Of a stretch of DNA of 64,000 nt, positions 1 to 58,093 are shown piece by piece. The notes under the pieces are model-generated. The model was not told where the DNA came from. It saw only the letters and a list, made by a program, of their open reading frames with translations, and ran no database searches. The stretch spans positions 19,344-83,343 of the forward strand of contig DIER01000011.1 of NCBI GenBank assembly GCA_002418725.1. Reading direction: 5' to 3'. Origin of the DNA: Acholeplasmataceae bacterium UBA5769 (GTDB lineage: Bacteria; Bacillota_I; Bacilli_A; Acholeplasmatales; Acholeplasmataceae). Both the position numbers and the translations under genes were made by a program. Each line of letters starts with the position of its first letter. Within the stretch, counting starts at the first letter, position 1.

Positions 1-1
1 T

Positions 2-634
2 GACCGCAAGATCATAAAAGATATCTTCTACATCTTTAGGGTAATGCGTCATCCCATGGATAGTTTTTATGAGATTAAAAAAGGTCATCGAGCGACCTTG
101 ACTTCAGCTTTGATTCTCTACTTTATCTTGTTCTTGGTTTATTTGAATTTCAGTATCAATAAAGGCTTTATCTATCAATTCGTAGCAGCTGAGGACATGG
201 ACTTATCTGCGATTGTGATCGGGTTCTTCTCGATTACATTGGCTTTAATCATCAGCAACTACTTAGATACTTCGATTCATGATGGTCTTGGCGGTATTAA
301 ACAAATCTTTATTATGTTTATTTATGCTGTTGGTCCCTTAATGGTTGCACTTTTATCAACGACGATGCTCTCGTTTGTCTTAACGTATAACGAAGTTTTC
401 TTCCTTGATTTATTGATGTTCATTGGGATTGGATGGAGTTTCGTCAATATCTTCCTAGGTATTATTGAGATTCATGATTATACCGCAAAACAAACCATTA
501 AAAGCTTATTGATGACCGTTTTATTTACCATCATTATCGCCGTTGTTATCATCATCCTAGTGATGATGTGGGAACAACTTTACATGTTCTTAGAAGCACT
601 GATCAAGGAGGTGATTCGCAATGTTATTTCCTAA
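2..634 (+). CDS. YIP1-like multi-pass membrane protein, C-terminal part (5' truncated by window)
   Basis: Frame is open from base 2 (DRKIIKDIFYIFRVMRHPMDSFYEIK), so ATG 44 is probably internal. About five hydrophobic segments. HPxDxFYxIK resembles the start of the YIP1 domain in NHL/YIP1 proteins of Firmicute sugar loci. Stop overlaps the next start. Confidence 0.65.
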   Translation, partial: DRKIIKDIFYIFRVMRHPMDSFYEIKKGHRATLTSALILYFILFLVYLNFSINKGFIYQFVAAEDMDLSAIVIGFFSITLALIISNYLDTSIHDGLGGIKQIFIMFIYAVGPLMVALLSTTMLSFVLTYNEVFFLDLLMFIGIGWSFVNIFLGIIEIHDYTAKQTIKSLLMTVLFTIIIAVVIIILVMMWEQLYMFLEALIKEVIRNVIS

Positions 635-3020
635 AAAAAGAATCTTAATCATTGTGTTATTCTTCCTTTTTTCATTCACCGTAAATGCAGCATATATCGA
701 ATCATCGAAAGATACGAAAATGCCACCCGATACATACTCCTATATCATTGATGAACCCACCGATATGCAGTTTTTAGCAGAAGTTGGTGATCTGACGTTT
801 TATTATCGTGATTCAAGAGATGTTTTCGCGATTTATGACACAAGAAATGGCTATACCTGGAAGACAGGTTTAGACATTGCCGGTGAAGATGAATTAAAAG
901 ATGCTTGTGAAGCACTCTTTGCACAAGAAGTGCCACCGACAGAAGAAGAAATTGATCAGGTGTGTTTACCTTTCGAAGATTTCATGAATACGCGATTTGA
1001 AGCATTTTCAAATTCACTTTTAACACTTGAGTATTACAACAACTCCAATAACGTCAACAGAACACCATCAACGCATCCTACGGAAGCTGGTTTTTCAACG
1101 CTGATGATGGTCAATAATGACCCCACACATTACCGTTTAGAAATTCCTTTTTACGTGGTTGATGTGACGGTTTATGTTCACATTTATTTGACTCCTGAAG
1201 GATTAAGCTTAGAAATAAGAGATGATGAATTAGAAGGAAGAGATTTAAACCTGATCTCATCATTTATCTTAACACCACTGATGGGAGCATCAGGAGGTGC
1301 GACTATATCGTTTAATAAAGAGACGAATACATACGGAAGAGCAGCAGATGCTGTTAAAAAGCCGCAAATACCAGGGTATATCTTTGTACCTGATGGCAGT
1401 GGTTCTTTAATTCGTTTCCAAGATTATGCAACCAGTATTGCATCTTACTATGGAAGTATTTATGGTAAAGATTTAAGCACACAAACTTATCATGAACAAG
1501 TTGAAACCACATTTGTTCCACTGAAAGAACCCGGACTACCCCTCTACGGTATTGCCCATGGTAACCGTCAAGCGGCTTTCTTTGCACATGCAACGAGTGG
1601 TGCTGAGCATATGGAACTTGTTGTTTCTCCGCAAAATGGGATTGCGCCTAACCGTTCTGGTTATACGTTTGCTTTTGCTAGATTTAATTACAACACCTTG
1701 ATATATCAAGTGTATAACAATGCAGGAGCAGGTTATACCACGATGATGAGTGAACGTCCGAAATACGATATTAAACAACATTACATTTTCTTAGCAGGTG
1801 ACGGATCAACCGATGGTTATCCAGCAGATTATGTGGGTATGGCTAAAAAATATAGAGATATCTTAATTGAAAATGATGTGTTAAAACCTCTTACAGATAC
1901 CCCTGAACACATGCCCATTCGCCTTGATTTTATCATGGCTGATGCCATGGATTCACTGGTTGGAACAACCGATGTTGTTGTCACCACGATTGATCAGGTC
2001 AAAGAGATCTTATCAAAACTTCAAGACGATGGCATTTATAACATTAATTCTGGACTTTATGGTTATCAAAAAGGTGGAATCACGCTTGGTAAGAAAGATA
2101 AACCAAGATTTGTTTCTAGTATTGGGACAAAACGCGAATTTGACCACGTGATTGAAGATCTTAATGAAAAGGGAATTGATGTTTCATTAGCCATGGATTA
2201 TACGACCATCTACAAAGAACAGATGGCTCTCATTGGAAATGCGACCAAACATGCCAATGGTTGGTACATCAGAGAATATTTAAGAAATGAAGTCGGTCCA
2301 GTCAGTGAACGCTATTTTGCAAGACCTAGACTTGTCGCTTCATGGATTTTATCGCATGAAAAAGCAACCAGAAGTTTAGGGTTATCCAGTTATACCTATG
2401 AAGGTGTGACCAACACCCTTTACAGTGATTTCGGTAAAAATGGGGCATCCATAACCGATACGATGGGGCTCTACCAAGATGCATTAGCGCAAATCAATCA
2501 ACAATACAAAGTCAATGGTGTCAAGCCAAACATGTATTTATGGCCATACATTGATCGCTATTTACAAGCACCGATGTTTACCTCTCAGCACTTAATTGAA
2601 ACCGATACTGTACCTTTCTTGCAAATGGTTCTCAATAATACCATGGAAGTATATGCGGTCTATTCAAACTTCTCATTTTATACGCAACAAGATATTTTAC
2701 GCATGATTGATTACAACGTATACCCATCATTTATGCTCACGCATGACCCAGCATACAAACTGATTTCAACAAACTCTTCTAATTTCTATTCCACCGAGTT
2801 TTCACTTTATGAAGATTTGATCCATAACATCTATCATCAAATGAATCGTGCATACGAAGATGTCTTAGGTGCCGAATGGATTGATCGTGAAGTCATTATG
2901 CCAGGCGTCATTGTGAATACCTACGACAATGGGGTTCAAATTGTGATCAATTACACCGAAGATTTAGTTTATTATGATGATAAGGTAGTGACATCGATGT
3001 CCTACCGTGTCATCAGTTAG
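621..3020 (+). CDS. DUF5696-like exported protein (799 aa, glycoside-hydrolase-like fold suspected)
   Basis: N-terminal signal peptide (KKR, hydrophobic core, VNA). Motifs IPGYIFVPDGSGSLIRF, PLYGIAH and PFLQMVL. Lies between a YIP1 gene and ABC permeases, the usual DUF5696 context. Confidence 0.7.
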   Translation: MLFPKKRILIIVLFFLFSFTVNAAYIESSKDTKMPPDTYSYIIDEPTDMQFLAEVGDLTFYYRDSRDVFAIYDTRNGYTWKTGLDIAGEDELKDACEALFAQEVPPTEEEIDQVCLPFEDFMNTRFEAFSNSLLTLEYYNNSNNVNRTPSTHPTEAGFSTLMMVNNDPTHYRLEIPFYVVDVTVYVHIYLTPEGLSLEIRDDELEGRDLNLISSFILTPLMGASGGATISFNKETNTYGRAADAVKKPQIPGYIFVPDGSGSLIRFQDYATSIASYYGSIYGKDLSTQTYHEQVETTFVPLKEPGLPLYGIAHGNRQAAFFAHATSGAEHMELVVSPQNGIAPNRSGYTFAFARFNYNTLIYQVYNNAGAGYTTMMSERPKYDIKQHYIFLAGDGSTDGYPADYVGMAKKYRDILIENDVLKPLTDTPEHMPIRLDFIMADAMDSLVGTTDVVVTTIDQVKEILSKLQDDGIYNINSGLYGYQKGGITLGKKDKPRFVSSIGTKREFDHVIEDLNEKGIDVSLAMDYTTIYKEQMALIGNATKHANGWYIREYLRNEVGPVSERYFARPRLVASWILSHEKATRSLGLSSYTYEGVTNTLYSDFGKNGASITDTMGLYQDALAQINQQYKVNGVKPNMYLWPYIDRYLQAPMFTSQHLIETDTVPFLQMVLNNTMEVYAVYSNFSFYTQQDILRMIDYNVYPSFMLTHDPAYKLISTNSSNFYSTEFSLYEDLIHNIYHQMNRAYEDVLGAEWIDREVIMPGVIVNTYDNGVQIVINYTEDLVYYDDKVVTSMSYRVIS

Positions 3021-3029
3021 GGGGTCAAC

Positions 3030-4061
3030 ATGAAAAAGAAGAAACAAGCTTCAACGTTGACCAAGCATACCAATAAAGCAGCCTATCTTTTTCTGCTTCC
3101 TTGGTTAATCGGATTTCTCATTTTTGTCGCTTATCCATTTTTCTACACCATCTATCTCTCACTTTTCTCAGTGGTTCGAGATGTGACAGGGTGGACCTAT
3201 ACCTTTATCGGTTTAGGCAATTATGAGACAGCCTTCTTTAAGAATACGACATTTTCACCACTGATATTAGACTTTATCATCGTGGAGTTGACGTATGTTC
3301 CTGCCATTTTGGTGCTGTCATTAATCTTGAGTTTACTTTTAAATACAAACATCAAATTTCGTGCAGGGTTTAGAATGATTTATTTCTTCCCTGTGGTTGT
3401 TTTGTCAGGACCGGTGATGTCGCAATTGATGAATTCAAATTCAACGTCTACCATCGACGTCACTGATATCATCGTCTACCGCATGATTGAAAATTTTAGT
3501 CCTTTTATCGCAGAGATGATTGGCGGCATTTTTAACAACTTTACCATGATCTTATGGTTTACGGGTATTCCAATTATCTTGTTTATGAATGGTCTTCAAA
3601 AGATGAATGCACAGCTCTATGAAGCTGCCCAAATTGATGGTGCGAATTCATGGCAGATCTTATGGAAAATAACGTTACCCAACTTGAAATCAACTGCACT
3701 TGTGGTTGCTATCTTTTCAGTTGTCCAAATCGCTATCTTCCAGATCAATCCGATTTATTCCTTCGTTGTAGGTACCATCACAGGCAATTACACGAGAGGT
3801 TTAGGATTTGCAGGAGCAGTCGTCTTGGTTTATTCATTTATCGTCTTGATCTTTGTGGGTATCGTCTTCATGTTACTTAAAGATCGTGATAAGGTGATTT
3901 ATGAAGAATCGCTTCGTGAAAGAAAAGAACGCATGCGTTTAAAGATGGTTAAGTTACAACAACAACGTAACCAAAAATCGTTAAAAACGCAGTTCAAAGA
4001 ACTGTTTGAAAACATGAAACGCAAATTATTCAAGAAGGAGGTGGCTGAACATGATGAGTAA
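3030..4061 (+). CDS. Carbohydrate ABC transporter permease (MalF-like)
   Basis: EAA motif LYEAAQIDGANSWQILWKITLP; multiple TM segments; RBS GGGG. Confidence 0.9.
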   Translation: MKKKKQASTLTKHTNKAAYLFLLPWLIGFLIFVAYPFFYTIYLSLFSVVRDVTGWTYTFIGLGNYETAFFKNTTFSPLILDFIIVELTYVPAILVLSLILSLLLNTNIKFRAGFRMIYFFPVVVLSGPVMSQLMNSNSTSTIDVTDIIVYRMIENFSPFIAEMIGGIFNNFTMILWFTGIPIILFMNGLQKMNAQLYEAAQIDGANSWQILWKITLPNLKSTALVVAIFSVVQIAIFQINPIYSFVVGTITGNYTRGLGFAGAVVLVYSFIVLIFVGIVFMLLKDRDKVIYEESLRERKERMRLKMVKLQQQRNQKSLKTQFKELFENMKRKLFKKEVAEHDE

Positions 4062-5121
4062 ACTTAACATGGTTAAGCTTAAAAAGATTTTTGTTGGACA
4101 CAAAGCAACCTCTGGTATTGTTGGTAAAATTGCGGTATATGCGCTTTTAATTGGCGTCAGCTACATTTTCTTATACCCCTTGATTCGTATGATTTCTCTT
4201 TCATTTTTAACACAAGCAGATATCGTCAATCCTGAGGTTGACTGGATTCCAACTCAACTGAATTTCGCGAATTATGTCGTTGCAAATCGTGTACTGCAGT
4301 TATTTCCACCTTCGCTAGCAACATTTTCAGACAACGCATTCCGCGCTATTTTTGGCATTTTCAAAGATGGTGGGAATTTATGGAAATCGATGAAAAATAC
4401 CGCGATTTTAGCGATTATTCAAACGATTATTGCATCATTTACGGGTTTCGCATTTGCACGTTATGAATTTAAGTTTAAGAAATTTTGGTTCGCGATGGTC
4501 TTGATTTCCTTTATTATTCCCCTACCGATGGTCACCATTCCACGCGTCATGATTTTCTTTGACCTACAGGATACGGTATGGATTCCATTTATTGAACTCA
4601 TTAAAGGCTCCTTCTTAGAATCAATTTTTAAACCTAGATTGTTTAATACGATTTTCCCACAAGCGACTTTAACCTTCTTTGGTCAAGGGATCAATGGGGC
4701 GATCTTAATTCTTATTTTCTATAACTTTTTTAAGATGATTCCAATTTCACTGGATGAAGCTGCACGTATCGATGGCGCGACATCACCTCAAGTGTTTTGG
4801 CATATTTATGTGAAGTTAGTTGTACCTATTATCATTACCGTATTCTTGTTCTCCTTCGTTTGGAACTGGAACGATGTCTATTCCGCACAAGTTTATTATT
4901 GGGATAAAAACCCACTCATTACCACAAGACTTGGTGCATTTGATTCACAGTTTGGCGATCTTGCAGGTGCTATTCCTGGCCAAGGTGGCGAAGCAAGACT
5001 GAATGAGGCATACCGTATGGCTGCGACCTTCTTATCAATCTTACCGTTACTGATTATGTATGTCTTAGCACAACGTAAGTTTATTGAAGGTATTGAACGC
5101 ACCGGTATGACAGGTGAATAG
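4051..5121 (+). CDS. Carbohydrate ABC transporter permease (MalG-like)
   Basis: EAA motif LDEAARIDGA; FSFVWNWND; C-terminal QRKFIEGIERTGMTGE; RBS AAGGAGG. Confidence 0.9.
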   Translation: MMSKLNMVKLKKIFVGHKATSGIVGKIAVYALLIGVSYIFLYPLIRMISLSFLTQADIVNPEVDWIPTQLNFANYVVANRVLQLFPPSLATFSDNAFRAIFGIFKDGGNLWKSMKNTAILAIIQTIIASFTGFAFARYEFKFKKFWFAMVLISFIIPLPMVTIPRVMIFFDLQDTVWIPFIELIKGSFLESIFKPRLFNTIFPQATLTFFGQGINGAILILIFYNFFKMIPISLDEAARIDGATSPQVFWHIYVKLVVPIIITVFLFSFVWNWNDVYSAQVYYWDKNPLITTRLGAFDSQFGDLAGAIPGQGGEARLNEAYRMAATFLSILPLLIMYVLAQRKFIEGIERTGMTGE

Positions 5122-5122
5122 A

Positions 5123-6025
5123 ATGAAAAAAACATATATCAGTATGCTGATGATCCTTTTTATCATGGGATTATCAGCATGCCAGAATAACGATACCCCT
5201 ACACCACCAGAAGAAACTGATTACTCACTTTGTAAGGCTGCAGGGTATGACTATGATCCAACACTCATCGATGATTATGAGCTGGTTTGGTCTGATGAGT
5301 TTGATGTGGATGGTACGATTGATAAAACCAAGTGGGGCTACGATATCGGTGGCTCTGGATGGGGAAATAATGAACTTCAATATTACACGCAAGACTTAAA
5401 TTCCTGGGTAGAAGATGGCAAAATGGTCATTGAAGCCAGAAAAGAAAACTACATGGGAAGAAACTATACATCTGCCCGCGTGATTAGCAAAAACAAAGGT
5501 GATTTTCTCTATGGTCGAATCGATATCATGGCGAAACTTCCCTCCGGTCGTGGCACATGGCCAGCGATTTGGATGCTGCCGACCGATTGGCGTTATGGTG
5601 GATGGCCAAACAGTGGCGAAATTGATATCATGGAGCACGTTGGTTATGATCAAAACAAAGTCCATGGTTCCATTCATACCAAGATATTTAATCATAAATT
5701 AGGGACCCAACGTTCTGGCACGAGGATCATTGAAACAGCGTCTACTGAATTTCATAAATACAGCATTGAGTGGTTACCAGATCGCATCAAGTTTTTTATC
5801 GATGACCACAACTATTTTACCTTTCATCCGAACCGTCAAGTCGATTGTCCAACCTCTGGACAGTGGCCTTTTGACATGCGTTTCCATTTGTTATTAAACA
5901 TTGCCATTGGCGGTGATTGGGGTGGAGCACAAGGTGTTGACGATGAAATTTTTCCACAGCGCATGGAAATTGACTATGTCAGAGTATATCAATCAGAATT
6001 TATTACGAACTTACAGAAGGGATAG
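5123..6025 (+). CDS. GH16 endo-beta-1,3-glucanase (laminarinase-like), lipoprotein
   Basis: Catalytic EIDIME motif; WSDEF, WGNNELQYY and WPAIWML. Lipobox LSAC. Start placed at ATG 5123 (track start is GTG 5114). Confidence 0.9.
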   Translation: MKKTYISMLMILFIMGLSACQNNDTPTPPEETDYSLCKAAGYDYDPTLIDDYELVWSDEFDVDGTIDKTKWGYDIGGSGWGNNELQYYTQDLNSWVEDGKMVIEARKENYMGRNYTSARVISKNKGDFLYGRIDIMAKLPSGRGTWPAIWMLPTDWRYGGWPNSGEIDIMEHVGYDQNKVHGSIHTKIFNHKLGTQRSGTRIIETASTEFHKYSIEWLPDRIKFFIDDHNYFTFHPNRQVDCPTSGQWPFDMRFHLLLNIAIGGDWGGAQGVDDEIFPQRMEIDYVRVYQSEFITNLQKG

Positions 6026-6033
6026 GTGTCAAA

Positions 6034-9000
6034 ATGTCATCTTCATTTACATTTAAAGAAGGACGTCTTTGGATTGATCGTTATGATCAAAAAAAGCCGT
6101 TTGCTTCATTTTTACCAGGTGTTGCTGGAAAGTATGGTATTCCCATGTGGGTGTACTATGTCAACAGGGGACAACTCATTTCAAGCTTTGGTCTTGAATC
6201 GAAAGATCAACCCATGCTTGACTTTAGTCCTGCAAACATGGCGTATCGCAGAACAGAAATTGATGGATTTCGAACATTATTAAAAGTTAATGGAAAACTT
6301 TACGAACCCTTTAGTTCGACACAAAATCAAAAACGACGGATGTTCATTGAAATGAACGCGATCGGTTTAGTTGAAGAACAAGAAACCTTTAGCATTGAAG
6401 TCAAATATGTAAACGTCGTGGAACAACCTTATCCTGGTTTAGTCAGAAAAGTAAATATTACCAACAAGACTTCATCGCCGTTAAAAGTTGAAATCATTGA
6501 TGGACTCGCAACGCTTTGGCCATTTGGAACCAATCAGTTTATGATCAAAAACATGAGCAATCTTGCGGTTGCTTGGTTTGATGTGTTTAATCAGGAAAGA
6601 AAAATGCCTTTACTGAAGAACCGTTCAACAACAGAAGATACAACCGAAGTGGAAGGCGTTGAAGCAGGACATTTCTATGTATCTCTTGACGAGCACAATG
6701 AAAAACTGGATGTCATCTATGATCCAACCCTACCTTTTGGTTTTGATACAGCTTTAAGAGAAGCAAAACGTTTTAGTGAGTATGCACTTTCTGACTTATT
6801 AAAAGAAGAACAAGTCTCTGTCAATCAATTGATGAGTGCTTTTTCAGCGAAAGCATTGACTTTAAACGATGCCTATACATTCTATACCCTCTTTGGTAAA
6901 GTGAATCACATGGATGAACTCCATGCACTAGAGCAATCTTTGACTTTCCAAAAACTTTCTGAAAACGAGAAGAATGCTGAACGTTTAATCGATGAAATCA
7001 CAAAACCATTGACGATCAAAACGAATTACCCCATCTTTGATGCTTACATGAAACAAAGCTTTTTGGATAATTTATTACGTGGTGGTTACCCCTTGGTTTT
7101 TAAAGGTAAAGACCAAGATATCATTTATCACATCTATTCACGTATCCATGGCGACATGGAACGCGAATACAACAATTTCTACGTTGAACCAGCTTATTTC
7201 TCACACGGAAATGGCTCTTATCGTGACGTAAATCAAAACAGAAGAAATGATGCCTACTTCGTTCCTGAAGCAGCTCTTTTTAACATTCGTCAATTTATGG
7301 ATCTCATTCAAGTAGATGGACATAACCCTTTGACGATTCAAGGAAGCAAACTTGTCATTGAAAAAGAAGATGTAGCATCTCTTGTCAAAGGATTTAAAGA
7401 AAGTGATCAAAAACGTATCGAAAAGATACTCTCACAACCCTTTACACCAGGTGCATTGATGACACATATCGATCATCATGGTGTTTCATTACCTATGAGT
7501 AGAGATGAATTTCTTAAGAAAGTGATGCTTGTATCTAGACAAGAGATTCAATCGGTTTATGGCACTGGTTATTGGTCCGATCACTGGATGTATAACATGG
7601 ATTTAATCGATTCTTATTTAAATATTTATCCAGATCGCTTAAGATCATTGATGTTAACCAAACAGTATCGTTTCTACCAAAACCATATCTCTGTTTATCC
7701 AAGAAGTATCAAGTATGTCATCAACTCAAAAGGTGAAGTTAGACAACTTGAACCACTTTTCCATGACCACGAAAAGGTAAGTAAGACCAAACTAGTCGTC
7801 AATCAAACCAATTTCCAAAAGAACACGAGAGGTGAAATTGTCAAGGTTGATCTATTAACCAAACTCATCCATTTAGCACTCATCAAATTTAGTAGTTTAG
7901 ACCCTGAACTGATCGGTATCATGATGGACAGCGAAAAGCCGGGTTGGAATGATGCGATGAATGGTTTACCTGCCATCTTTGGATCAGGTGTCACCGAAAC
8001 GTTAACCTTAAAGAGACTTATTGTTTTCTTAATGGAATCTCTACCCATGCTTGAAGAAGATAGTTTCCATATGCACGTTGAATTTGTAAACTTCTTCAAA
8101 GAAGTTGTTCAAGGAGCTAAAGAAGGCTTTGATAAGTTACAAGATACACGTGAGCATTTTGTTGAACTCACAAGATTCTTCTTAGATACACATGAAGTAA
8201 ACATCACCACTAAAGAGATCCTTGAAGGTCTTCATATCATGCATCAAACCATCTTAAAAGGGCTTGATAAGGCTAAAAAAATTGGTAATGGTTTATTGCC
8301 AACCTATTTAACATACCATGCCACTTCATATAAAGAAAATGGCGGGAAACACCCAGTACTTCAATATCCTACGGTTCAAGTTACAGCATGGAGCGTGAGA
8401 ATGTTACCTCATTACTTGGAAGCCCCTGCAACGTATATGAAGCAACTTCATGATCCAAAAGAAGCAAAAGAAATGTATGAGATGATCAAAAAAACAGAGA
8501 TGTATGATAAAAAACTAGGTCTTTATCAAACATCATGTTCATTAGATAATGAAACACTTGAAATTGGAAGAGCGAGAGCTTTCACCAAAGGATGGTTGGA
8601 GCGTGAAGCATGCTTCATGCACATGGCATATAAATATTTGATTGGTATTCTTAAGAGTGGTTTATATGAAGAATATTATCAGGATATGAAAACATCGATG
8701 CCACCATTTATGGATCCTGAAGTGTACGGCAGATCACCACTTGAAAATGCATCGTTTATCGCGACATCAAGCAATCCAAACCAACAAAATCACGGTCGTG
8801 GTTTTGTCGCAAGATTAACTGGAACAACTTCAGAAGCGATGACGCTTTTGATGCTGATGATGACTGGTAAAAAACTGTTTAGCTATCAACATCAAGTGTT
8901 AAGATTCCAAATTAAGCCCATTTTAACTGCTGATTTCTTTGATGCGCAAAACGAGGTTTCTTTTACCCTGTTTGAGTCTGTTCATGTTAAGGTCATCAAC

Positions 9001-9162
9001 CCAGAAAGAAAAGATACCTTTAAGGGCTTGAAGCCGGTATCCTATCGCCTAGAAAATGATGTAGATTCTGTCGTTATTGAAGGTGAATATATCGAAGGAC
9101 ATCTTGCGGAACAAGTAAGAAATAAACACTTTAAAAACATCATCGTTACACTTAAGTCTTAA
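6034..9162 (+). CDS. Beta-1,3-glucan phosphorylase, GH161-like (1042 aa)
   Basis: Motifs FLPGVAGKYGIPMWVYYVNRGQ, RIHGDMEREYN, YRDVNQNRR, GYWSDHW, KPGWNDAMNGLP and GWLEREACFMHM match my recollection of GH161 rather than GH94 or GH149. No signal peptide. Confidence 0.8.
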   Translation: MSSSFTFKEGRLWIDRYDQKKPFASFLPGVAGKYGIPMWVYYVNRGQLISSFGLESKDQPMLDFSPANMAYRRTEIDGFRTLLKVNGKLYEPFSSTQNQKRRMFIEMNAIGLVEEQETFSIEVKYVNVVEQPYPGLVRKVNITNKTSSPLKVEIIDGLATLWPFGTNQFMIKNMSNLAVAWFDVFNQERKMPLLKNRSTTEDTTEVEGVEAGHFYVSLDEHNEKLDVIYDPTLPFGFDTALREAKRFSEYALSDLLKEEQVSVNQLMSAFSAKALTLNDAYTFYTLFGKVNHMDELHALEQSLTFQKLSENEKNAERLIDEITKPLTIKTNYPIFDAYMKQSFLDNLLRGGYPLVFKGKDQDIIYHIYSRIHGDMEREYNNFYVEPAYFSHGNGSYRDVNQNRRNDAYFVPEAALFNIRQFMDLIQVDGHNPLTIQGSKLVIEKEDVASLVKGFKESDQKRIEKILSQPFTPGALMTHIDHHGVSLPMSRDEFLKKVMLVSRQEIQSVYGTGYWSDHWMYNMDLIDSYLNIYPDRLRSLMLTKQYRFYQNHISVYPRSIKYVINSKGEVRQLEPLFHDHEKVSKTKLVVNQTNFQKNTRGEIVKVDLLTKLIHLALIKFSSLDPELIGIMMDSEKPGWNDAMNGLPAIFGSGVTETLTLKRLIVFLMESLPMLEEDSFHMHVEFVNFFKEVVQGAKEGFDKLQDTREHFVELTRFFLDTHEVNITTKEILEGLHIMHQTILKGLDKAKKIGNGLLPTYLTYHATSYKENGGKHPVLQYPTVQVTAWSVRMLPHYLEAPATYMKQLHDPKEAKEMYEMIKKTEMYDKKLGLYQTSCSLDNETLEIGRARAFTKGWLEREACFMHMAYKYLIGILKSGLYEEYYQDMKTSMPPFMDPEVYGRSPLENASFIATSSNPNQQNHGRGFVARLTGTTSEAMTLLMLMMTGKKLFSYQHQVLRFQIKPILTADFFDAQNEVSFTLFESVHVKVINPERKDTFKGLKPVSYRLENDVDSVVIEGEYIEGHLAEQVRNKHFKNIIVTLKS

Positions 9163-9194
9163 TTAAGGGGGGCACGGTTTAACGTGCAGAAAGT

Positions 9195-11042
9195 ATGAAA
9201 AAACTTATCATTCTTTTTACGCTGCTTCTTACTAGCTTTACTTTGATCGCTTGCAAGGATCAAATCGATACAGAAGATGTCACACCAACGTATCCAGATC
9301 ATCTTTTAACGATTGAAGAAAAGGTTAATTGGTGGCTTGAAAACTTGACTTTGGCTGAAAAAGCAGGACAAATGATCCAAGCTGAACGTACCACCAACAA
9401 TGGTATCACTGGTGCTACTGCGATACAAACCACAAATTACAACTTGGGGTCCATTTTAAATGGCGGTGGAAACGTACCACCTGTGAACACCGTAAGTGGT
9501 TGGAAAACGATGGCGAATACGTATCGTCAAGCCAGCTTAAAGTCATCATCAGGTATTCCAATCATCTATGGCATTGATGCCGTGCATGGACATAACAATT
9601 TAAAAAATGCCACCATCTTTCCACTCAACATTGGGCTTGCAGCTGCAAACAACAAAGAACTCATGAGAGCCATTGGTGAAGCAACAGCATATGAAGTGAG
9701 TCAAACAGGCATGAACATGAATTTTAGCCCGTCGATCGGTTTGATTAAAGACAAAAGATGGGGGAGAACCTATGAAACGTTTGGTGAGAACCCTGAAGTC
9801 GTTTTGGAACTGATTGGACCTTATATCGAAGGGCTACAACGTTTTGGTGTGATTGCTACTGCAAAACACTTTATCGCAGATGGCTATACGATATATGGCA
9901 CAGGCATGGATGGCGGTCTTGACCGCGGCAATGTCGAGATGAGCGAAGAAGAGTTAATTAACATTCATCTTCCTCTTTATCAAGAAGCCATCGACGCAGG
10001 TGTGAAGAGCATTATGATTTCTTATTCAAGTTTAAATGGCATTCGGATGCATGAACATAAAACCATGATCACCGATGTTTTAAAAGGTGATCTTGGGTTT
10101 CAAGGTTTTGTTATCTCGGATTATCAAGCAACAAACGACGTGACCGGAGCGACTTTTAAAGATAAAATTATCACAACCGTAAACGCAGGTATCGACATGT
10201 TGATGGAACCTCACCAGTTTAGAGAAGCACATCAAGCGATCTTAGCTGGTGTGAATGAAGGTAGAATCACGATGGCACGGATCGATGATGCAGTTTCAAG
10301 AATTTTAACTGTGAAGTATGAGATGGGTCTTTTTGAAGAACCCGAAAACATACCAGCTGATCTTCGAAATATTGAAAACTTAAATCTTGCGCGACAAGCG
10401 GTTCGAGAGTCGTTAGTTTTACTTAAAAACAACAACGTTTTACCTTTTTCTAAAGATCAAAATCTCCTTGTTATCGGACCAGGTTCAAACAACATAGGCA
10501 TTCAATCAGGTGGCTGGACCATCACCTGGCAAGGTCAATCAGGAGATATCACCGAAGGGACAACCATTTTAGAAGCTTTTCAAGAGGTCTCACAAGGACA
10601 AATCTATACCTCGTTAAACGACTTGGATAAGGTTGATGCCGTGGTCTTAGTTTTAGCTGAGAAACCATCCGCAGAATGGTTTGGTGATTCCAATGATTTA
10701 GCCTTAGACGGTAAAACAGGTTATGTTGAAAACGTACAACTTCTCAACCAATTAAGATCAAGCGGAAAACCGGTAATCGCTATTTTAGTATCTGGAAAAC
10801 CTTTACTGATGACCGATTATATCGATGATCTTGATGGTTTTGTCATGGCATTTTTACCGGGCACAGAAGGTCTAGGTATCACCGATGTCCTCTATGGAGA
10901 TTATAACTTTACGGGTCGTCTACCGTACACATATCCTAAACTTTTGAGTCAGGTGACAGAGACCATGCTTGATGCTTCATATCACCCATCAGCCTATTTA
11001 TTTCCTTATGGCTATGGTCTATCTTATGGGGAGGTTACTTAA
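9195..11042 (+). CDS. GH3 beta-glucan exohydrolase / beta-glucosidase, lipoprotein
   Basis: Lipobox LIAC; DAVHGHNN, ATAKHF and the nucleophile region VISDY. Two-domain form without Fn3, like barley ExoI. Confidence 0.9.
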   Translation: MKKLIILFTLLLTSFTLIACKDQIDTEDVTPTYPDHLLTIEEKVNWWLENLTLAEKAGQMIQAERTTNNGITGATAIQTTNYNLGSILNGGGNVPPVNTVSGWKTMANTYRQASLKSSSGIPIIYGIDAVHGHNNLKNATIFPLNIGLAAANNKELMRAIGEATAYEVSQTGMNMNFSPSIGLIKDKRWGRTYETFGENPEVVLELIGPYIEGLQRFGVIATAKHFIADGYTIYGTGMDGGLDRGNVEMSEEELINIHLPLYQEAIDAGVKSIMISYSSLNGIRMHEHKTMITDVLKGDLGFQGFVISDYQATNDVTGATFKDKIITTVNAGIDMLMEPHQFREAHQAILAGVNEGRITMARIDDAVSRILTVKYEMGLFEEPENIPADLRNIENLNLARQAVRESLVLLKNNNVLPFSKDQNLLVIGPGSNNIGIQSGGWTITWQGQSGDITEGTTILEAFQEVSQGQIYTSLNDLDKVDAVVLVLAEKPSAEWFGDSNDLALDGKTGYVENVQLLNQLRSSGKPVIAILVSGKPLLMTDYIDDLDGFVMAFLPGTEGLGITDVLYGDYNFTGRLPYTYPKLLSQVTETMLDASYHPSAYLFPYGYGLSYGEVT

Positions 11043-12368
11043 ATGACATTTAAGATGTTAGAATCACGCTTATCTGAAGGTCTTTTTTGGCAAGCAGTAA
11101 ACAAGTTTAAAAGCGAACAGGTGAAACCACATGAATCATCAATATTGACCATCAATCCTCATCAAACCTACCAAACACACATAGGATTTGGTGGTGCTTT
11201 TACAGAATCAGCTGCATACACATGGTCAAAACTATCAAAAGATAAACAACAAGACATTATCAATCTGTATTTTTCTCAATCAGGTCTAGCATACACTATG
11301 GGAAGAACGCACATCAATTCCTGTGATTTTTCTTTAGAAAATTATGATTATGTAAAACCATTTGATAGTGAACTTAAATCTTTTGATATCTCAAGAGAAG
11401 AGGCCTATGTCATTCCCATGATCAAAGAGGCGATGAAGCATGTGCCAAACATCAAATTATTAGCCTCACCTTGGTCACCACCCTATTGGATGAAAACCAA
11501 CCAAAACATGAATCATGGTGGGAAATTATTACCTGAATACAAGCAAGTTTGGGCAAACTATTACGTGAAATACCTTGATGAAATGTTAAAAAGAGGCATT
11601 CCTTATTGGGCAATTTCGGTTCAAAATGAACCTGCAGCTGTGCAAACGTGGGATTCATGTATCTACAGTGCTGAAGAAGAAAGAGATTTCATCAAAGAAG
11701 CACTCGGTCCAACCATCAAAGCATACAACAAAGACATCCGTATCTTAGGTTGGGATCATAACCGAGATATTATCGTCCAAAGAGCAAAAACACTGCTGGA
11801 AGATGAAGTGTCCGCATCTTATACATGGGGGATTGCCAATCACTGGTATGTCAGTGAAGATTTTAAGCAGTTATCCATCGTGAAAGAGATGTTTCCAGAC
11901 ACACACCTTATCTTTACCGAAGGTTGTATCGAAGGTGGACCCAAACCAGGTGCATGGTTAACAGGACTTCGTTATGCCAGAAATATGATTGGTGACTTAT
12001 CTAATCATGTCGAGGGTTGGATTGAATGGAATTTAACACTGGATCTACAAGGTGGTCCCAATCATGTTGGAAATTTTTGTGATGCACCCATCTTAATAGA
12101 TACCGATCATAATAGGTATATCATCAATTCATCGTATTATGCGATTGGACATTTTTCTAAGTTCATTCGTGAAGGTGCGAAACGTATCCATGTCGAAGGT
12201 GATTATCCAAAAGGTGTATCCATGGTTGCTTACCAAAACAAAGATCAATCCATCGTTATGGTTTTATTAAATGAAAGTGATGAATTAAAAAAGGTAAACA
12301 TTGCCATCGTACATGAGATTATGGCAGTAGAACTTCATCCACATTCGCTTTTGACTCTTTTTGAGTAA
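11043..12368 (+). CDS. GH30 glycoside hydrolase (glucosylceramidase / beta-1,6-glucanase type), cytoplasmic
   Basis: GFGGAFTE, SCDFS, ASPWSPP, acid/base VQNEP and nucleophile FTEGC. Starts immediately after the GH3 stop (TAAATG). Confidence 0.88.
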   Translation: MTFKMLESRLSEGLFWQAVNKFKSEQVKPHESSILTINPHQTYQTHIGFGGAFTESAAYTWSKLSKDKQQDIINLYFSQSGLAYTMGRTHINSCDFSLENYDYVKPFDSELKSFDISREEAYVIPMIKEAMKHVPNIKLLASPWSPPYWMKTNQNMNHGGKLLPEYKQVWANYYVKYLDEMLKRGIPYWAISVQNEPAAVQTWDSCIYSAEEERDFIKEALGPTIKAYNKDIRILGWDHNRDIIVQRAKTLLEDEVSASYTWGIANHWYVSEDFKQLSIVKEMFPDTHLIFTEGCIEGGPKPGAWLTGLRYARNMIGDLSNHVEGWIEWNLTLDLQGGPNHVGNFCDAPILIDTDHNRYIINSSYYAIGHFSKFIREGAKRIHVEGDYPKGVSMVAYQNKDQSIVMVLLNESDELKKVNIAIVHEIMAVELHPHSLLTLFE

Positions 12369-12446
12369 TTCATAAAAAAAACAATATAGTGACATGAAAT
12401 GTCATGTGATTTGATACAATATATGTGGAATGGAAGTGGATAAAGC

Positions 12447-13466
12447 ATGGTAACTATTGATGAAATAGCTAAACTTTCAAAAGTTTCAGTATCAACCGTA
12501 TCCAAAGCACTGAATGGGTACACGGAAATCAGTCAAAAAACGCGCGATCGCATCATTGGTATCGCCGATGAACTGGGCTACATGCCGAATGCGACCGCAC
12601 AAAGTTTGGTTCGAAAGCGTTCGAATACCATCGGTGTTGTTTATGAAGTTGAATATGGTTTAAAAAATTTATTCTTCTCTGGCGTTTTAGAATCGTTTCG
12701 CAAAAATGTGGAATCCATCGGGTATGATATCTTATTGTTATCACACAATACGGAATCAGGACTAGACTATTTAAGACACTGTCAGTCCAAAAATGTGGAT
12801 GCTGTTTTAGTCGTTTCTGGTGGTGATAACCAAGAATCACTTGAAAAACTATACAAAAGCAACCTCGCTGTCCTCACCCTAGATCCACACGAAAAGAGTC
12901 CGAACTCCATTTTTTCTGACTCTTATACATCCATTAGAAGAAGTTGTAAGTATTTATACGACTTAGGGCATAAAAAAATTGCCTTTATCAATGGTTCATA
13001 CACGAACTATATTGGTCGTGAGCGTCTTAAGGCATACCTTGATTTCATGCGTGAGAAAGGTTTAGAGCCACTCTACCTTCCCGATAAGTCAAATGAATCC
13101 TATAGTTACGAAGAGGGTCATCACACGATGAAACTCCTGTTTGAAACATATGGATTACCCGAAGCCGTTTGTTCGGTTTCTGATTTGATGGCTGTCGGTG
13201 CGATGAACTATTTGAAAGCACATGGTTTTTCTGTCCCAGATGATGTTTCCATCATCGGTTTTGATGATCTACAAGTCTGTGAGATCGTATCACCTAAACT
13301 GACGACGGTTAGACAAAACTATGAAGCCTTTGGTGAACTTGCCTGTGATACCCTTAAAGGGATGATTGAAGGCAAAATGAGAAAGATTGACCCCATCATT
13401 GTAGATACGGAAATCATTGTCAGAGATTCATGTAAAAAAAGACGCTTGAAGGAAGTTAATGAATAA
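12447..13466 (+). CDS. LacI-family transcriptional regulator
   Basis: N-terminal HTH TIDEIAKLSKVSVSTVSKALN; YMPNATAQSL; C-terminal SIIGFDD and PKLTTVRQ. TGnTACAAT at 12412-12420 upstream. Confidence 0.92.
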   Translation: MVTIDEIAKLSKVSVSTVSKALNGYTEISQKTRDRIIGIADELGYMPNATAQSLVRKRSNTIGVVYEVEYGLKNLFFSGVLESFRKNVESIGYDILLLSHNTESGLDYLRHCQSKNVDAVLVVSGGDNQESLEKLYKSNLAVLTLDPHEKSPNSIFSDSYTSIRRSCKYLYDLGHKKIAFINGSYTNYIGRERLKAYLDFMREKGLEPLYLPDKSNESYSYEEGHHTMKLLFETYGLPEAVCSVSDLMAVGAMNYLKAHGFSVPDDVSIIGFDDLQVCEIVSPKLTTVRQNYEAFGELACDTLKGMIEGKMRKIDPIIVDTEIIVRDSCKKRRLKEVNE

Positions 13467-14693: not shown

Positions 14694-15380
14694 CTACTCA
14701 TCTTTAAAACGATAGCCTACACCAACCTCTGTTAAAATGTAACTACTATTCGTGTTCGTTTGGCCTAACTTTTTTCGGATACTTGCCATAAACACTCTGA
14801 GCGACTGATAATCATCAACCGTATGATAACCCCATATTTCTTCTTGGATAAAACGATGCGTTAATACTTTACCTTGATGCTTAACCAAAAGTTCGAGTAA
14901 TTTAAATTCGATGGGTGTTAAATGTATATCAGTACCATTAACGGAGACAAGATATTTATCAAAATCTATCGTTAAATTTTGATATGTAAACTCTTTTTCG
15001 GTTTGCATAGGGAGATTTCTAAGAGCTACTCTAATTCGAGCTAAAACTTCACCAATGTTGAAAGGCTTAGTAACATAATCGTTTGCACCCATATCAAGAG
15101 CACTGACTTTATCGAATTCTTTACCTCGTGCGGAAATGATAATGACTGGAACGAGTGATACTTTCTTTATGTTTTCTAAGACTTCAAAACCATCGATATC
15201 AGGTAAGCCTAAATCGAGAAGCACTAAATCAACATGCTGGTTAATGACCACTGATAATCCAATCGCACCTTCTTTAGCCTGCAACACGCGATACCCATTT
15301 GTCTTGAGTGCAAGAGATAAAAATCGCTGCAATACTTCATCATCTTCAATGAGTAAGATGGTATGTTCTTGGTTATTCAT
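14694..15380 (-). CDS. kdpE: KdpE-like response regulator
   Basis: LLIEDD, LLDLGLPDIDG, ANDYVTKPF and DYQSLRVFMASIRKKL. ATG 15380 with RBS AGGAGG overlaps the kinase stop. Confidence 0.85.
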   Translation of the reverse strand: MNNQEHTILLIEDDEVLQRFLSLALKTNGYRVLQAKEGAIGLSVVINQHVDLVLLDLGLPDIDGFEVLENIKKVSLVPVIIISARGKEFDKVSALDMGANDYVTKPFNIGEVLARIRVALRNLPMQTEKEFTYQNLTIDFDKYLVSVNGTDIHLTPIEFKLLELLVKHQGKVLTHRFIQEEIWGYHTVDDYQSLRVFMASIRKKLGQTNTNSSYILTEVGVGYRFKDE

Positions 15381-16857
15381 GTTCTTGGACACCTCCTGTT
15401 TTTGGAATCACTAAACGAAATGTTGCACCACCTATATCATTGTTTACGGCTTCAATTGAACCCATATGAGCATTCAAGATAGATTTGCAAATCGATAGAC
15501 CTAAGCCTATACCACGATGCATGTCACCGGAATGATGTTGAAATGTCTGATAATCATCGAAAATATGAGCAAGATGATCAGGTGGAATTCCTCCACCATT
15601 ATCAACCACCTCGATGATATAATCCTCATCATTTGAAGCAAAAGACAAGCAAATGATTGAATCGTTTTTTGTGTGTGCAATAGCATTATCAATGAGATTA
15701 ACGAGAACCTGAACAATCAATTGACCATCAACCTCTATATAGGCATCATCAACATTTTCGATAGTGAGTTGATGTTGACCCAAGCGATGTTGTGTTCTTT
15801 CTTTAGCTTCATTAAATATATCTCCAATGAGTTCTTGTTTGATATGCAACACTTGGTTTTTTGAACTTAATCTTGTCATATATAAAATGTTCTCAATAAA
15901 AACACTTAATTGGGCAGATTCATCATATAAATCTTTTATGATTGTTAACTTATTTTTATCATCAATTTGAAAGAAACTCTCTTCGAGAAAACTCAATCCT
16001 GTTTGGAGTGTTGTTAATGGAGTTCTTAAATCATGTGATATGCTTCTTAGTAACATGGTTTTAAAACGTTCTTTTTCAAATTCGAGTTTGGATATTTGCT
16101 CAATCTCACGGCTGTGTTCTTGGTCAAGTAAACCGCTGACTAGCAAGATCACTGTTTGAATAAATTCTTCATCTTCTTTAGAAAGATCACCAGAAAGACA
16201 ATCAATACATAATGCACCATAGAAACGTTCTTTAGATTGAATGATTAAGACTTTATAGCCTAACTCGCGATGTACAAGTTCATATGCACCACCATTTATT
16301 TGCTCCTTAATCATTTGTCTAACAATCTGTTTTTGATGTTCTTCGATGAGAGGATCTCCGAGCAATTGGTCATTAAGATCATAAAAACATAGATTTCGAT
16401 TTATATCACCCTTGATAGCATCTAGCATGATATAAATGGTTTCATCCCGATTTTTTGCATGATGTAGATCGTTCGATAAATGGTACAAAAGCTCAATTTT
16501 GAGAGCGTTTGTCTTTGCATAATTGATCTGATATTGTAATTTAGCTGTTTGAGAACCAATAATTACGATGGTAATCACAAAAATAACAAGCGTGATGATG
16601 TAATTCACATCATCAATCAAGAATGTGAATTTAGGTTCTGTAAAGAAGAAGTTAAAAATAAAGACGAGGAAAAATGTGGAAATCAACCCGTTTTGAGTGC
16701 TTTTCGTTTGAACGATAATTAATATAATTGAAGCAATATACACAAGAAGAATGTTTTCTTTTCTTAATTGCAACTGTTCAAAAGCAAAAGATAGAAGCGT
16801 TGATAGACTTAATACAATGAGTACAAAGATGAGTTGGTGTATCCAGCGTTTTTTCAA
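15373..16857 (-). CDS. kdpD: Short KdpD-like sensor histidine kinase (DUF4118-type TM, GAF-like, HisKA, HATPase)
   Basis: FNFFFTEPKFT TM motif, H-box SISHDLRTPL, N-box LVNLIDNA, DNGGGI and GLGLSICK. No N-terminal KdpD or Usp domain. Confidence 0.8.
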   Translation of the reverse strand: MKKRWIHQLIFVLIVLSLSTLLSFAFEQLQLRKENILLVYIASIILIIVQTKSTQNGLISTFFLVFIFNFFFTEPKFTFLIDDVNYIITLVIFVITIVIIGSQTAKLQYQINYAKTNALKIELLYHLSNDLHHAKNRDETIYIMLDAIKGDINRNLCFYDLNDQLLGDPLIEEHQKQIVRQMIKEQINGGAYELVHRELGYKVLIIQSKERFYGALCIDCLSGDLSKEDEEFIQTVILLVSGLLDQEHSREIEQISKLEFEKERFKTMLLRSISHDLRTPLTTLQTGLSFLEESFFQIDDKNKLTIIKDLYDESAQLSVFIENILYMTRLSSKNQVLHIKQELIGDIFNEAKERTQHRLGQHQLTIENVDDAYIEVDGQLIVQVLVNLIDNAIAHTKNDSIICLSFASNDEDYIIEVVDNGGGIPPDHLAHIFDDYQTFQHHSGDMHRGIGLGLSICKSILNAHMGSIEAVNNDIGGATFRLVIPKTGGVQEHE

Positions 16858-18321
16858 TTACAATACCTTCTTTTTTGTAATTTTTAAAATCATACTTGAA
16901 AAAGCTATAATAACAACAAAGAATTCTAGTCTCCCAATAAACATACCAATCATAGATGTCCATAGCAGTGGTGCAGGTGTTTCGATGCCTATGATTCCAA
17001 TAGATAGGCCAACAGTGCCTAAAGATGAAGAAAATTCGAATAATGAAGACTCTAGGGAGTGACCATAAAACATAAACATTGATGTTCCAACCATAAGTGT
17101 AAGCAGATAGACCATAATAAATGAGTGATTATGATACAAATCTTCGGGTTCAATATCGTATTTTTTGCCAAATTTCATAATGTCGTAGGTATGAATTGTC
17201 CGTTGATGTGATAAACGATCACGAATATTCCAATACAACTCTTTAAGCATGATGCCTACTCGATATTGTTTAATACCTCCTGATGTTGAGCCTGCTTGTC
17301 CACCAATAATCATTAATATTATAACACTAAAGTTAAAAACGTATGGCATCTCTTGGAAAGAGGTTATCGTTTGAAATCCTGTTGTGGTGATCGCACTTAC
17401 ATATTGAAATAATGCTGTTCTCAAACCGAAAAGCCCTGTATGTGTAGTTAAAGTTAGCCATAATATACCGATAAAAATGATAGTTAAGACCACAAATAAC
17501 TTCGTTTCGATGTGTTGAAATGCTTTTTTGAATTTACCTTTGATGATATAAAGATGGATGATCATGTTTGTACTTCCCAGTAGCATCAACACTATGGTGA
17601 TAATTTCAATGGGAAAACTATGATAGTAACCAACAGATTCTGGATGGGTAGAAAAACCTCCTGTGGATAAACTTGCAATGGCATGATTGATTGCATCAAA
17701 AAATGTGACACCAAAAATCATATAGGATACTGTACCTAGAATAATGTATATCGTATACATGGATAAAATCAACCTTGCAGAACGGGCTAGATTAGGTAAT
17801 AGTTTATCGTTATGACCTTCTGCGTGATATAAACGCATTCCGTATTTATCTGAAATAGTGGAAGTTAAGATAAGAACTAAACCAATACCTCCAATAAACT
17901 GCATGATACTGCGATAGAGCAGAAGCATTTTTGATGCATTTGCTACATCAACCACAGTCAATCCAGTCGTTGAGTAACCACTTGTTGCTTCAAATAGACT
18001 TTGAGTTAGCGTATATTTTCCACTTAACAGCAAGGGTAATGAAGAAATAACGATAGCCAATATCCAAATAAAAACTAAAAGCACAGCATCTTGATGACGC
18101 TCCAATTTTTCTGGTTTTTTACCTCTGATTGTTTGACTCATTAAATAACCTAGTACCAATGAAGTTACACCAGGAATTATCCAATAATAAGCATCGGCTA
18201 TTTCGCTAGAATCAAAGAAAAGAACGATCAATGGAAGAAGTGTGATTGCTCCAATAAGCATCATAAAAACACCGAGATACCCAAAAATCATTGGGTATCC
18301 CTTTACTTGATTACTTTTCAT
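16858..18321 (-). CDS. trkH: TrkH-family potassium uptake membrane protein
   Basis: Four pore motifs SGYSTTG, TGGFST, TTTGF and LGTVG; GGQAGSTSGGIK. Start ATG 18321 overlaps the trkA stop; the track start is over-extended. Confidence 0.9.
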   Translation of the reverse strand: MKSNQVKGYPMIFGYLGVFMMLIGAITLLPLIVLFFDSSEIADAYYWIIPGVTSLVLGYLMSQTIRGKKPEKLERHQDAVLLVFIWILAIVISSLPLLLSGKYTLTQSLFEATSGYSTTGLTVVDVANASKMLLLYRSIMQFIGGIGLVLILTSTISDKYGMRLYHAEGHNDKLLPNLARSARLILSMYTIYIILGTVSYMIFGVTFFDAINHAIASLSTGGFSTHPESVGYYHSFPIEIITIVLMLLGSTNMIIHLYIIKGKFKKAFQHIETKLFVVLTIIFIGILWLTLTTHTGLFGLRTALFQYVSAITTTGFQTITSFQEMPYVFNFSVIILMIIGGQAGSTSGGIKQYRVGIMLKELYWNIRDRLSHQRTIHTYDIMKFGKKYDIEPEDLYHNHSFIMVYLLTLMVGTSMFMFYGHSLESSLFEFSSSLGTVGLSIGIIGIETPAPLLWTSMIGMFIGRLEFFVVIIAFSSMILKITKKKVL

Positions 18322-49919: not shown

Positions 49920-49922
49920 GGT

Positions 49923-53752: not shown

Positions 53753-53866
53753 AAAATCATGTACATGGGGGTTAACACATTAACCCCTATTTTTTATTTT
53801 TAAATTCAAACTATTTGCGTTATAATGTATTTAAATACATGAAAATGTCATATGAAGGAGAACACC

Positions 53867-57998: not shown

Positions 57999-58093
57999 CA
58001 CCTGTTGATGACACACGATGTTATGTATGTCACCTTTAATTATACACTTTTTTAAGTTTTCATGAAACATTTTAGACATAAAAGATAAAATAG

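Follow-up and report, generated by a model that had tools for sequence, protein, structure and literature searches.

ATP-binding cassette (ABC) importers are the main uptake route for fragments of complex carbohydrates in Gram-positive and wall-less bacteria, both in the gut and in the wider environment, and in the textbook importer two permeases and one binding protein work with an ATPase that is shared. Where one or more glycan-degrading enzymes, a transporter and a regulator are co-located, the region is termed a Gram-positive polysaccharide utilisation locus (gpPUL). Here we analyse such a locus in Acholeplasmataceae bacterium UBA5769, which extends into a 64,000-nucleotide stretch of DNA (positions 19344–83343 of contig DIER01000011.1, or C29; hereafter the window, in whose own numbering coordinates are given unless prefixed with a contig), for which 19.3 kb of 5′ flank was also fetched. 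At the start of the window a Yip1 domain, a protein of the Pfam family DUF5696 and two sugar permeases are encoded directly ahead of beta-glucan enzymes, and we find that these genes belong to an eight-gene cassette with two permease pairs, a genuine and conserved form of the Gram-positive ABC locus for glycan uptake that appears not to have been described before.

The CUT1 importers (MalEFGK2/MsmEFGK, with the shared MsmX/MsmK) resemble the cassette in their EAA-loop permeases, MalE-like binding proteins, lack of an ATPase gene in the locus and neighbouring glycoside hydrolase (GH) and LacI genes, but the cassette differs from them in holding two permease pairs in one fixed unit, a 1007-aa membrane-anchored multidomain binding protein and, always between its permease pairs, a protein that joins NHL, TPR and Yip1 domains and a GH129-like ectoprotein. 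The nearest described relative of the whole locus lies in Acholeplasma laidlawii PG-8A, where Kuhaudomlarp et al. (2019, PMC6484121) drew two clusters side by side, one with the GH94 laminaribiose phosphorylase and a binding protein, the other with GH161 and “lacking” a binding protein. The same study suggested that a single binding protein is shared by both A. laidlawii clusters and reported that most loci of this kind have no ATPase genes; the A. laidlawii locus adjoins a characterised laminaribiose phosphorylase, and its Yip1 and DUF5696 genes were not discussed (PMC6484121). That locus is orthologous to ours, has a GH94-like gene upstream as in our genome and shares the same presumed substrate, beta-1,3-glucan, yet in contrast to the two-cluster drawing we find one conserved cassette, in which the Yip1 and DUF5696 genes are included.

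The accessory proteins have described counterparts of their own. YknW is a Yip1-family accessory of the Bacillus YknWXYZ ABC pump and modulates its assembly (PMC4887032); YknW is needed for its transporter or modulates it and, like the protein described here, is a bacterial Yip1-domain membrane protein encoded with an ABC transporter, but YknYZ is a MacB-type exporter with a membrane-fusion protein, whereas the cassette encodes type-I importers and has its Yip1 domain fused to extracellular NHL and TPR domains. The DUF5696 protein shares its predicted fold and profile-level homology with the GH129 enzymes ZgGH129/DagB (a 3,6-anhydro-D-galactosidase, 5opq/8rzk) and NagBb (an alpha-N-acetylgalactosaminidase, 5wzn), from which it differs in being membrane-tethered by prediction, always inside an ABC cassette, linked to beta-glycans and equipped with its own acidic set. 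Going by what is established for polysaccharide utilisation loci, the logic would be similar to that of the Bacteroidota Sus system, with surface enzymes and glycan-binding or enzyme-like surface proteins beside a transporter in a substrate-specific locus; the cassette, however, has no outer membrane, TonB-dependent transporter or SusD fold to work with, relies on ABC import and implies no shared ancestry.

An initial annotation of the window had described Yip1-like and DUF5696 open-reading frames packed ahead of two permeases and beta-glucan enzymes, and Pfam and NCBIfam searches bore out the coordinates, the families and the overlaps: tightly packed genes fill positions 1–13466 on the + strand. 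The Yip1 domain (2–634) forms the C-terminal 210 residues of a 681-aa NHL-TPR-Yip1 protein, and is followed by the 799-aa DUF5696 protein (621–3020; PF18952, 464 bits, E 9e-139), permease B1 (3030–4061; MalF/UgpA-like, BPD_transp_1 with an EAA loop and a charged C-terminal tail of ~60 aa) and permease B2 (4051–5121; MalG-like, BPD_transp_1, for which the best NCBIfam model is MalG, far under the model cut-off). Consecutive genes overlap by 14 nt (621/634), are separated by 9 nt (3020/3030), and overlap again by 11 nt (4051/4061) and by 8 nt (5114/5121), in the last case with the first enzyme gene. The upstream flank, whose retrieval had been suggested, yielded the 5′ part of the NHL-TPR-Yip1 gene, two binding proteins and a second permease pair, all on the same strand with gaps of 1–23 nt, so that the full cassette order reads binding lipoprotein (558 aa), giant binding protein (1007 aa), permeases A1 and A2 (312 and 292 aa), NHL/Yip1, DUF5696, permeases B1 and B2. 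Farther 5′ lie a GH30 (lipoprotein), a LacI, a second GH16 and a GH94-like protein of 835 aa. A single-strand span from C29:5148 to window position 13466 thereby includes GH16, GH30, GH3, GH161 and GH94-like genes, two ABC systems and two LacI genes, and with enzymes, ABC systems and LacI regulators together the locus fits the definition of a gpPUL.

One genome per species was scanned for relatives of the DUF5696 protein, the 80 best loci were kept, and these were searched by tblastn with 16 proteins of the locus. The eight-gene order was present in 55 of the 80 loci, which is every locus with enough flank, the other 25 all being cut by contig ends. Carriers were found in Acholeplasmataceae (including A. 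laidlawii), Haloplasmataceae, Izemoplasmatales, Erysipelotrichaceae, Lachnospiraceae, Eubacterium, Defluviitaleaceae, Halanaerobiales and Treponema. When 41 relatives of the window genome were compared, NHL/Yip1 and DUF5696 were both present in 29 and both absent from 12, and the NHL/Yip1 gene stood directly upstream of DUF5696 on the same strand at 73 of 79 places, the exceptions being mostly at contig ends. This arrangement is far beyond chance, and the recurrence of a Yip1/NHL-DUF5696-permease unit in polysaccharide loci of Firmicutes, which the initial annotation had put forward, holds for Firmicute and Mollicute loci alike. In the literature searched we found no published account of the eight-gene cassette, on which a Paenibacillus JDR-2 transcriptome paper is likewise silent, and no occurrence of the term DUF5696.

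The open-reading frame at 2–634 is open at its 5′ end; the full gene starts at C29:17932, 1412 nt before the window. Its 681-aa product carries a signal peptide, an NHL propeller, TPR repeats and one transmembrane helix, followed by the five-helix Yip1 domain, with hydropathy predicting transmembrane helices at residues 4–22 and 427–445 and a further five within the Yip1 domain (residues 505–658). The Yip1 match (PF04893) scored 43 bits against a cut-off of 28.6 and covered model positions 1–172 of 173, and the full-length open-reading frame also matched NHL and TPR families; of Yip1, NHL and DUF5696, for which a profile search had been proposed, all were matched. The NHL-TPR-Yip1 fusion, 674–787 aa in length, was found in 74 of 74 complete orthologues. 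A stand-alone Yip1 gene of 196/210 aa is ruled out, as the reading frame runs on upstream, and the earlier picture of Yip1 as a separate small protein gives way to that of one domain in the 681-aa protein. From the gene context and the published analogy with YknW we infer that the NHL-TPR-Yip1 protein may act as an ABC transporter accessory.

EAA coupling loops are kept in all four permeases, and both pairs therefore look, from their sequences, like working ABC importers. For pair A, 69 of 70 aligned sequences of one permease and 72 of 72 of the other carried the motif, E-A-A was invariant in permease B1 (59/59 aligned sequences), and in the EAAxIDGA motif of permease B2 the E, D, G and final A were kept in 72/72 and the two A positions in 70 and 68. 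By sequence, the 1007-aa protein matches Lin1841, which binds sophoro-oligosaccharides, over residues 582–899 (5ysb, E 1.7e-16), and the AlphaFold2 (AF2) model of the 1007-aa protein (pLDDT 83) comprises a transmembrane helix, two domains of the beta-sandwich type, a helical bundle and a CUT1 binding-protein fold, the last of which dominated the Foldseek results and gave a TM of 0.82 to 5ysb. A Pfam scan gave no family match for the two N-terminal beta-sandwich domains, and the 558-aa lipoprotein gave weak binding-protein matches only.

The window had been reported to lack both an ATPase and a binding protein, and indeed no sugar-binding protein or MalK-type ATPase was seen among its open-reading frames of at least 150 aa up to 22 kb or among the ten longest beyond; the module itself, however, has two binding proteins and a second permease pair just upstream, and a system without a binding protein is thus rejected. 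The sole ABC ATPase in the examined open-reading frames (26262–27800, tandem ABC_tran and ABC_tran_Xtn) is one that we take to be an ABC-F protein and not a transporter subunit. There is no ATPase gene in the locus, and two MalK/UgpC-type ATPases (376 and 360 aa), each with a C-terminal regulatory domain, are encoded on contigs C8 and C22. Gram-positive CUT1 systems habitually share ATPases, a pattern that fits here, and these two may serve this cassette.

The DUF5696 protein has an N-terminal hydrophobic helix without a lipobox, followed by an ectodomain. Its match to the Pfam family was strong (464 bits against a cut-off of 25.6, model positions 9–612 of 612; in-genome paralogues 369 and 528 bits), and the family itself is large: among 1.84 billion representative proteins that were scanned, it accounts for 4571 clusters at 50% identity. 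Across 133 DUF5696 proteins the hydrophobic helix was present in 120 and a lipobox in 17, which indicates that the protein is probably exported and then anchored or cleaved. A few members bear an N-terminal carbohydrate-binding module (CBM_4_9), which argues for carbohydrate contact.

Its AF2 model (pLDDT 86, pTM 0.88) consists of an N-terminal beta-sandwich, a (beta/alpha)8 barrel and a C-terminal beta-sandwich, the three-domain arrangement of GH129. When the model was compared with the PDB by Foldseek, as had been suggested for GH folds, GH129 enzymes came out on top: ZgGH129 first (E 4e-28, target TM 0.72), then NagBb, followed by GH101, GH36 and GH31, with the GH129 matches spanning E 1e-24 to 4e-28 and a target TM of 0.71–0.75. 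PDB searches by sequence with the single DUF5696 protein or a narrow 36-sequence profile found no useful relative, and a profile scan of 200 genomes of the phylum with PF11308 gave no matches. A 133-sequence DUF5696 profile, which includes the three in-genome paralogues, matched ZgGH129 (chain 8rzk, E 6e-6) and NagBb (5wzn, E 5e-5). Similarly, hhalign of the cassette family against 35 ZgGH129 homologues, gathered with a fragment of the ZgGH129 sequence as search seed, gave a probability of 99.7% and E 9e-25 over 633 columns, at an identity between DUF5696 cassette proteins and GH129 of ~10–15%. By these profile and model comparisons, the DUF5696 cassette protein is a remote homologue of GH129 glycosidases. 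ZgGH129 from Zobellia galactanivorans in turn scores 41 bits against Pfam DUF5696 and 19.7 bits against Pfam Glyco_hydro_129 (cut-off 25.6 for both), and is labelled “DUF5696 domain-containing protein” at NCBI. The Pfam family therefore already holds one characterised enzyme, the two Pfam models overlap, and the label of unknown function is partly outdated; accordingly, the statement in the initial annotation that this arrangement has no demonstrated function does not extend to the whole of the DUF5696 family.

The PDB chains of ZgGH129 differ at D486 alone (context GLEADITD486ITF; D486N in the Michaelis complex 8rzk), and we take D486 to be the nucleophile and E517 the acid/base, the latter being invariant in 35 of 35 ZgGH129 homologues. 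In the hhalign alignment D486 pairs with N598 of the window protein (column N42, S32, Y12), whereas matching by strand ends pairs it with E594, a position occupied by D and G in two paralogues from the same genome (on contigs C20 and C11, respectively). E517 falls opposite a gap; the strand-end columns next to it, 634 and 635, are acidic in 18/133 and 15/133, with V634 and K635 in the window protein, and the cassette family conserves none of the remaining polar residues of the barrel that are invariant among ZgGH129 homologues. The cassette family has conserved positions of its own: D258 in the PDGSG loop of the N-domain (131/133), N683 (133/133) and an acidic set composed of D436 (D80, E37), D441 (D73, E55), D662 (D113, E13) and D697 (D83, E50), again with n = 133. 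As judged from these alignments, the canonical GH129 mechanism is apparently not retained in the cassette family, whose conserved acidic set may form either a binding pocket or a rebuilt active site. Given the beta-glucan context, alpha-galactosaminidase or anhydrogalactosidase activity is unlikely.

The 1.76-Mb genome contains three paralogous cassettes in the same order, each beside different enzymes. In the copy at C20:44000–63900, permeases B1 and B2 are fused into one 629-aa open-reading frame, an Ig-domain binding protein and a sulfatase lie upstream, and on the downstream side are a GH3 and a member of PF10091 (“glucoamylase” family); PF10091 is linked to endo-beta-1,2-glucanases, and the gene set suggests a beta-1,2-glucan version of the cassette. 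In the copy at C11:17000–36900, NHL (493 aa) and Yip1 (213 aa) are separate genes, and after the cassette come genes for DUF624, NamZ (an exo-N-acetylmuramidase), a GH3, a kinase of the BadF type and a protein with a SIS domain. We take this GH3 to be NagZ-like and the SIS protein MurQ-like, and the set looks like one for scavenging peptidoglycan sugars, in an organism that we infer to be wall-less from its Acholeplasmataceae relatives. Identity between paralogues was highest for permease pair A (39–57%) and lowest for NHL/Yip1 (22–30%) and DUF5696 (22–25%); that the outward-facing DUF5696 and NHL/Yip1 proteins diverge most fits contact with different substrates.

The enzymes around the cassette in the window point to beta-1,3/1,6-glucan (laminarin) as the probable substrate. 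A GH16 endo-beta-1,3-glucanase of the laminarinase type (5114–6025; Pfam GH16, lipobox LSAC) matches the PDB laminarinase 3iln at E 5e-93, and is followed by a 1042-aa GH161 beta-1,3-glucan phosphorylase (6034–9162) that matches the solved GH161A 9qqk over its full length (E 7e-201, residues 10–1035). A GH3 beta-glucosidase (9195–11042; Pfam N- and C-terminal domains, lipobox LIAC) and an endo-beta-1,6-glucanase-like GH30 without signal peptide (11043–12368; Pfam GH30 and GH30C) come next, for which the best NCBIfam models were an exo-beta-1,3/1,6-glucosidase for GH3 and an endo-1,6-beta-glucanase for GH30, all far below cut-offs. The 3′ end of the locus is formed by a LacI-family regulator (12447–13466; Pfam LacI and Peripla_BP_3), an orthologue of which also stands 3′ of the locus in several relatives; all five genes are on the + strand. 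Lipoboxes mark the GH16, the GH3, the upstream GH30 and the 558-aa binding protein as predicted surface lipoproteins, and no signal sequence was found on the GH161, the GH30 at 11043–12368 or the other GH16. The GH161 has no transmembrane helix either and, having no signal peptide, is probably cytoplasmic. In A. laidlawii strain 8195 the same gene order recurs at 46–85% identity, with a GH94-like gene ~1.5 kb upstream. The GH16, GH161, GH94-like, GH3 and GH30 genes and the A. laidlawii layout thus make the assignment of beta-1,3-glucan well supported, in line with the substrate named in the initial annotation. Elsewhere in the window, at 48693–51350 on the − strand, lie genes for a GlgC-like glucose-1-phosphate adenylyltransferase and a GlgA-like glycogen synthase, a pathway whose direct precursor, glucose-1-phosphate, the GH161 and GH94-like phosphorylases would supply and could thus feed into it.

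Directly 5′ of the 558-aa binding-protein gene, at C29:11345–11373, is the top promoter-like site, which matches at 11 of 12 positions and has the TG of an extended −10 element. Directly after the stop codon of the same gene, 6.2 kb 5′ of the window, is a 14-bp GC-rich hairpin with a T-rich tail (C29:13078–13109), which could be a partial terminator that yields surplus binding-protein mRNA; from its position, too, the TTG annotated as the start of the 1007-aa gene would seem to lie too far upstream.

The genes named at the window edge form the distal half of a fixed eight-gene cassette, set in a ~27-kb locus for beta-1,3(/1,6)-glucan, and we judge it reasonably probable that the cassette is a twin CUT1 ABC importer with two obligate accessory proteins, which would work as follows. 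The interpretation offered by the initial annotation is partly supported, in its recurrent unit and its substrate; the complex that it proposed, in which the two proteins would bind or process glycan and feed the transporter in the manner of Sus, would fit where they lie and how they are conserved, and the GH129 catalytic pair not being conserved, either binding or catalysis is conceivable. Surface lipoproteins of the GH16, GH30 and GH3 families would cut beta-glucan outside the cell, the two binding proteins would deliver oligosaccharides to the two permease dimers, perhaps with different preferences for chain length or branching, and a shared MsmX/MalK-type ATPase would power both importers. 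Cytoplasmic GH161 and GH94-like phosphorylases and the second GH30 would complete the breakdown. The NHL-TPR-Yip1 and DUF5696 proteins would be obligate accessory subunits, for which we favour the role of a tethered glycan-binding platform: the Yip1 helices may dock to the permeases in the membrane, by analogy with YknW in YknWXYZ, the NHL/TPR ectodomain would hold the DUF5696 ectoprotein, and the glycan chain would be bound, or possibly trimmed, in the pocket of the GH129-like barrel at the mouth of the transporter. Several observations weigh against this proposal. The role of Yip1 leans on one distant analogy, YknW. The invariant residues of the ZgGH129 family, D486 and E517 included, are not kept in the cassette family, and neither catalysis nor ligand binding can therefore be transferred from GH129. 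GH129, GH101 and GH36 enzymes cleave alpha-linked sugars, whereas all substrates proposed here are beta-linked. Finally, column 594 is acidic in 68 of 133 sequences (D47, E21) and in 32 of 36 of the beta-glucan subfamily, which leaves room for true enzymatic activity of DUF5696. A wider version, which we think unlikely, would have all eight proteins in one membrane supercomplex, with the Yip1 helices bridging both importers whilst NHL/TPR and a non- or weakly catalytic DUF5696 barrel hold a long glycan and feed it stepwise to the surface enzymes and binding proteins, a hitherto unrecognised counterpart of Sus for single-membrane and wall-less bacteria that is re-used for many glycans (in this small genome beta-1,3-glucan, peptidoglycan sugars and probably beta-1,2-glucan).

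It is conceivable, if doubtful, that DUF5696 is instead an active enzyme of a new GH129-related family, a hydrolase, transglycosylase or debranching enzyme with a rebuilt centre that trims oligosaccharides for the second importer, the NHL/Yip1 protein being a mere anchor. The complete GH129-like three-domain fold is kept, there are family-wide conserved acidic positions and N683, the strand-end position of a possible nucleophile is acidic in the 32 of 36 just mentioned, subfamily-specific polar residues vary with the enzymes around the cassette, and CBM_4_9, found on some members, is a module usually joined to enzymes. Yet the acid/base E517 falls on a gap or a non-acidic column and D486 on N598 by hhalign, D and E are swapped freely at the conserved positions, as happens more typically with residues that bind a metal or a hydroxyl than with a nucleophile, Gly occupies the strand-end position in the peptidoglycan-linked paralogue on C11, the loci come with dedicated endo- and exo-enzymes already, and the known relatives act on alpha-linkages. 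The loss of the GH129 catalytic residues would fit an ex-enzyme, and NHL/Yip1 and DUF5696 might together be a sensor, regulator or assembly factor that handles no substrate and, for example, senses the glycan, gates or stabilises the importers or allots the shared ATPase. NHL propellers and TPR repeats are typical modules of protein–protein interaction. The Yip1 protein YknW does modulate the assembly of an ABC pump (PMC4887032), but we hold such a role very unlikely here, as the protein has no recognisable cytoplasmic signalling domain, LacI-type regulators are already present in each locus, and the fast divergence of DUF5696 between cassettes and its occasional CBM fusions point to carbohydrate contact. 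That there is no single module at all, only two independent ABC systems with two unrelated genes side by side, would agree with the treatment of the A. laidlawii genes as two adjacent clusters in 2019 (PMC6484121) and with the hairpin after the first binding-protein gene. We find this scarcely credible: the eight-gene order is identical in 55 of 55 complete loci across many families and is kept in three in-genome paralogues of only 22–57% identity, the presence and absence of NHL/Yip1 and DUF5696 match perfectly across relatives, coding regions overlap at several junctions, and fusions occur within the cassette (NHL with Yip1, B1 with B2). Two unrelated adjacent clusters are contradicted by these conservation data and were rejected.

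Elsewhere in the window, one block at 14694–19476 on the − strand looks, from translations read by eye, as if it held genes for potassium uptake (TrkH/TrkA-like) together with a response regulator and a histidine kinase whose N-terminal part is a membrane domain. A 589-aa open-reading frame (35323–37092, − strand) unites a lipid-binding DegV (FakB-like) domain and the domains of fatty-acid kinase A (Dak2, FakA middle); FakA-type kinase and DegV/FakB domains are usually on separate proteins. Two open-reading frames of 486 and 465 aa (53852–55312, + strand, and 56712–58109, − strand) had no Pfam match at E 1e-5.

The beta-glucan copy of the cassette is a useful one, as its substrate can be assigned with some confidence to a laminarin-type beta-glucan, and an orthologue exists in the culturable, wall-less A. 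laidlawii beside a biochemically characterised phosphorylase, whilst two further copies beside different enzymes in the same small genome provide a natural comparison set. Viewing these genes as one cassette would correct the published two-cluster reading of the A. laidlawii locus, and the roles of the accessory proteins would tell whether single-membrane bacteria own dedicated glycan-capture machinery.

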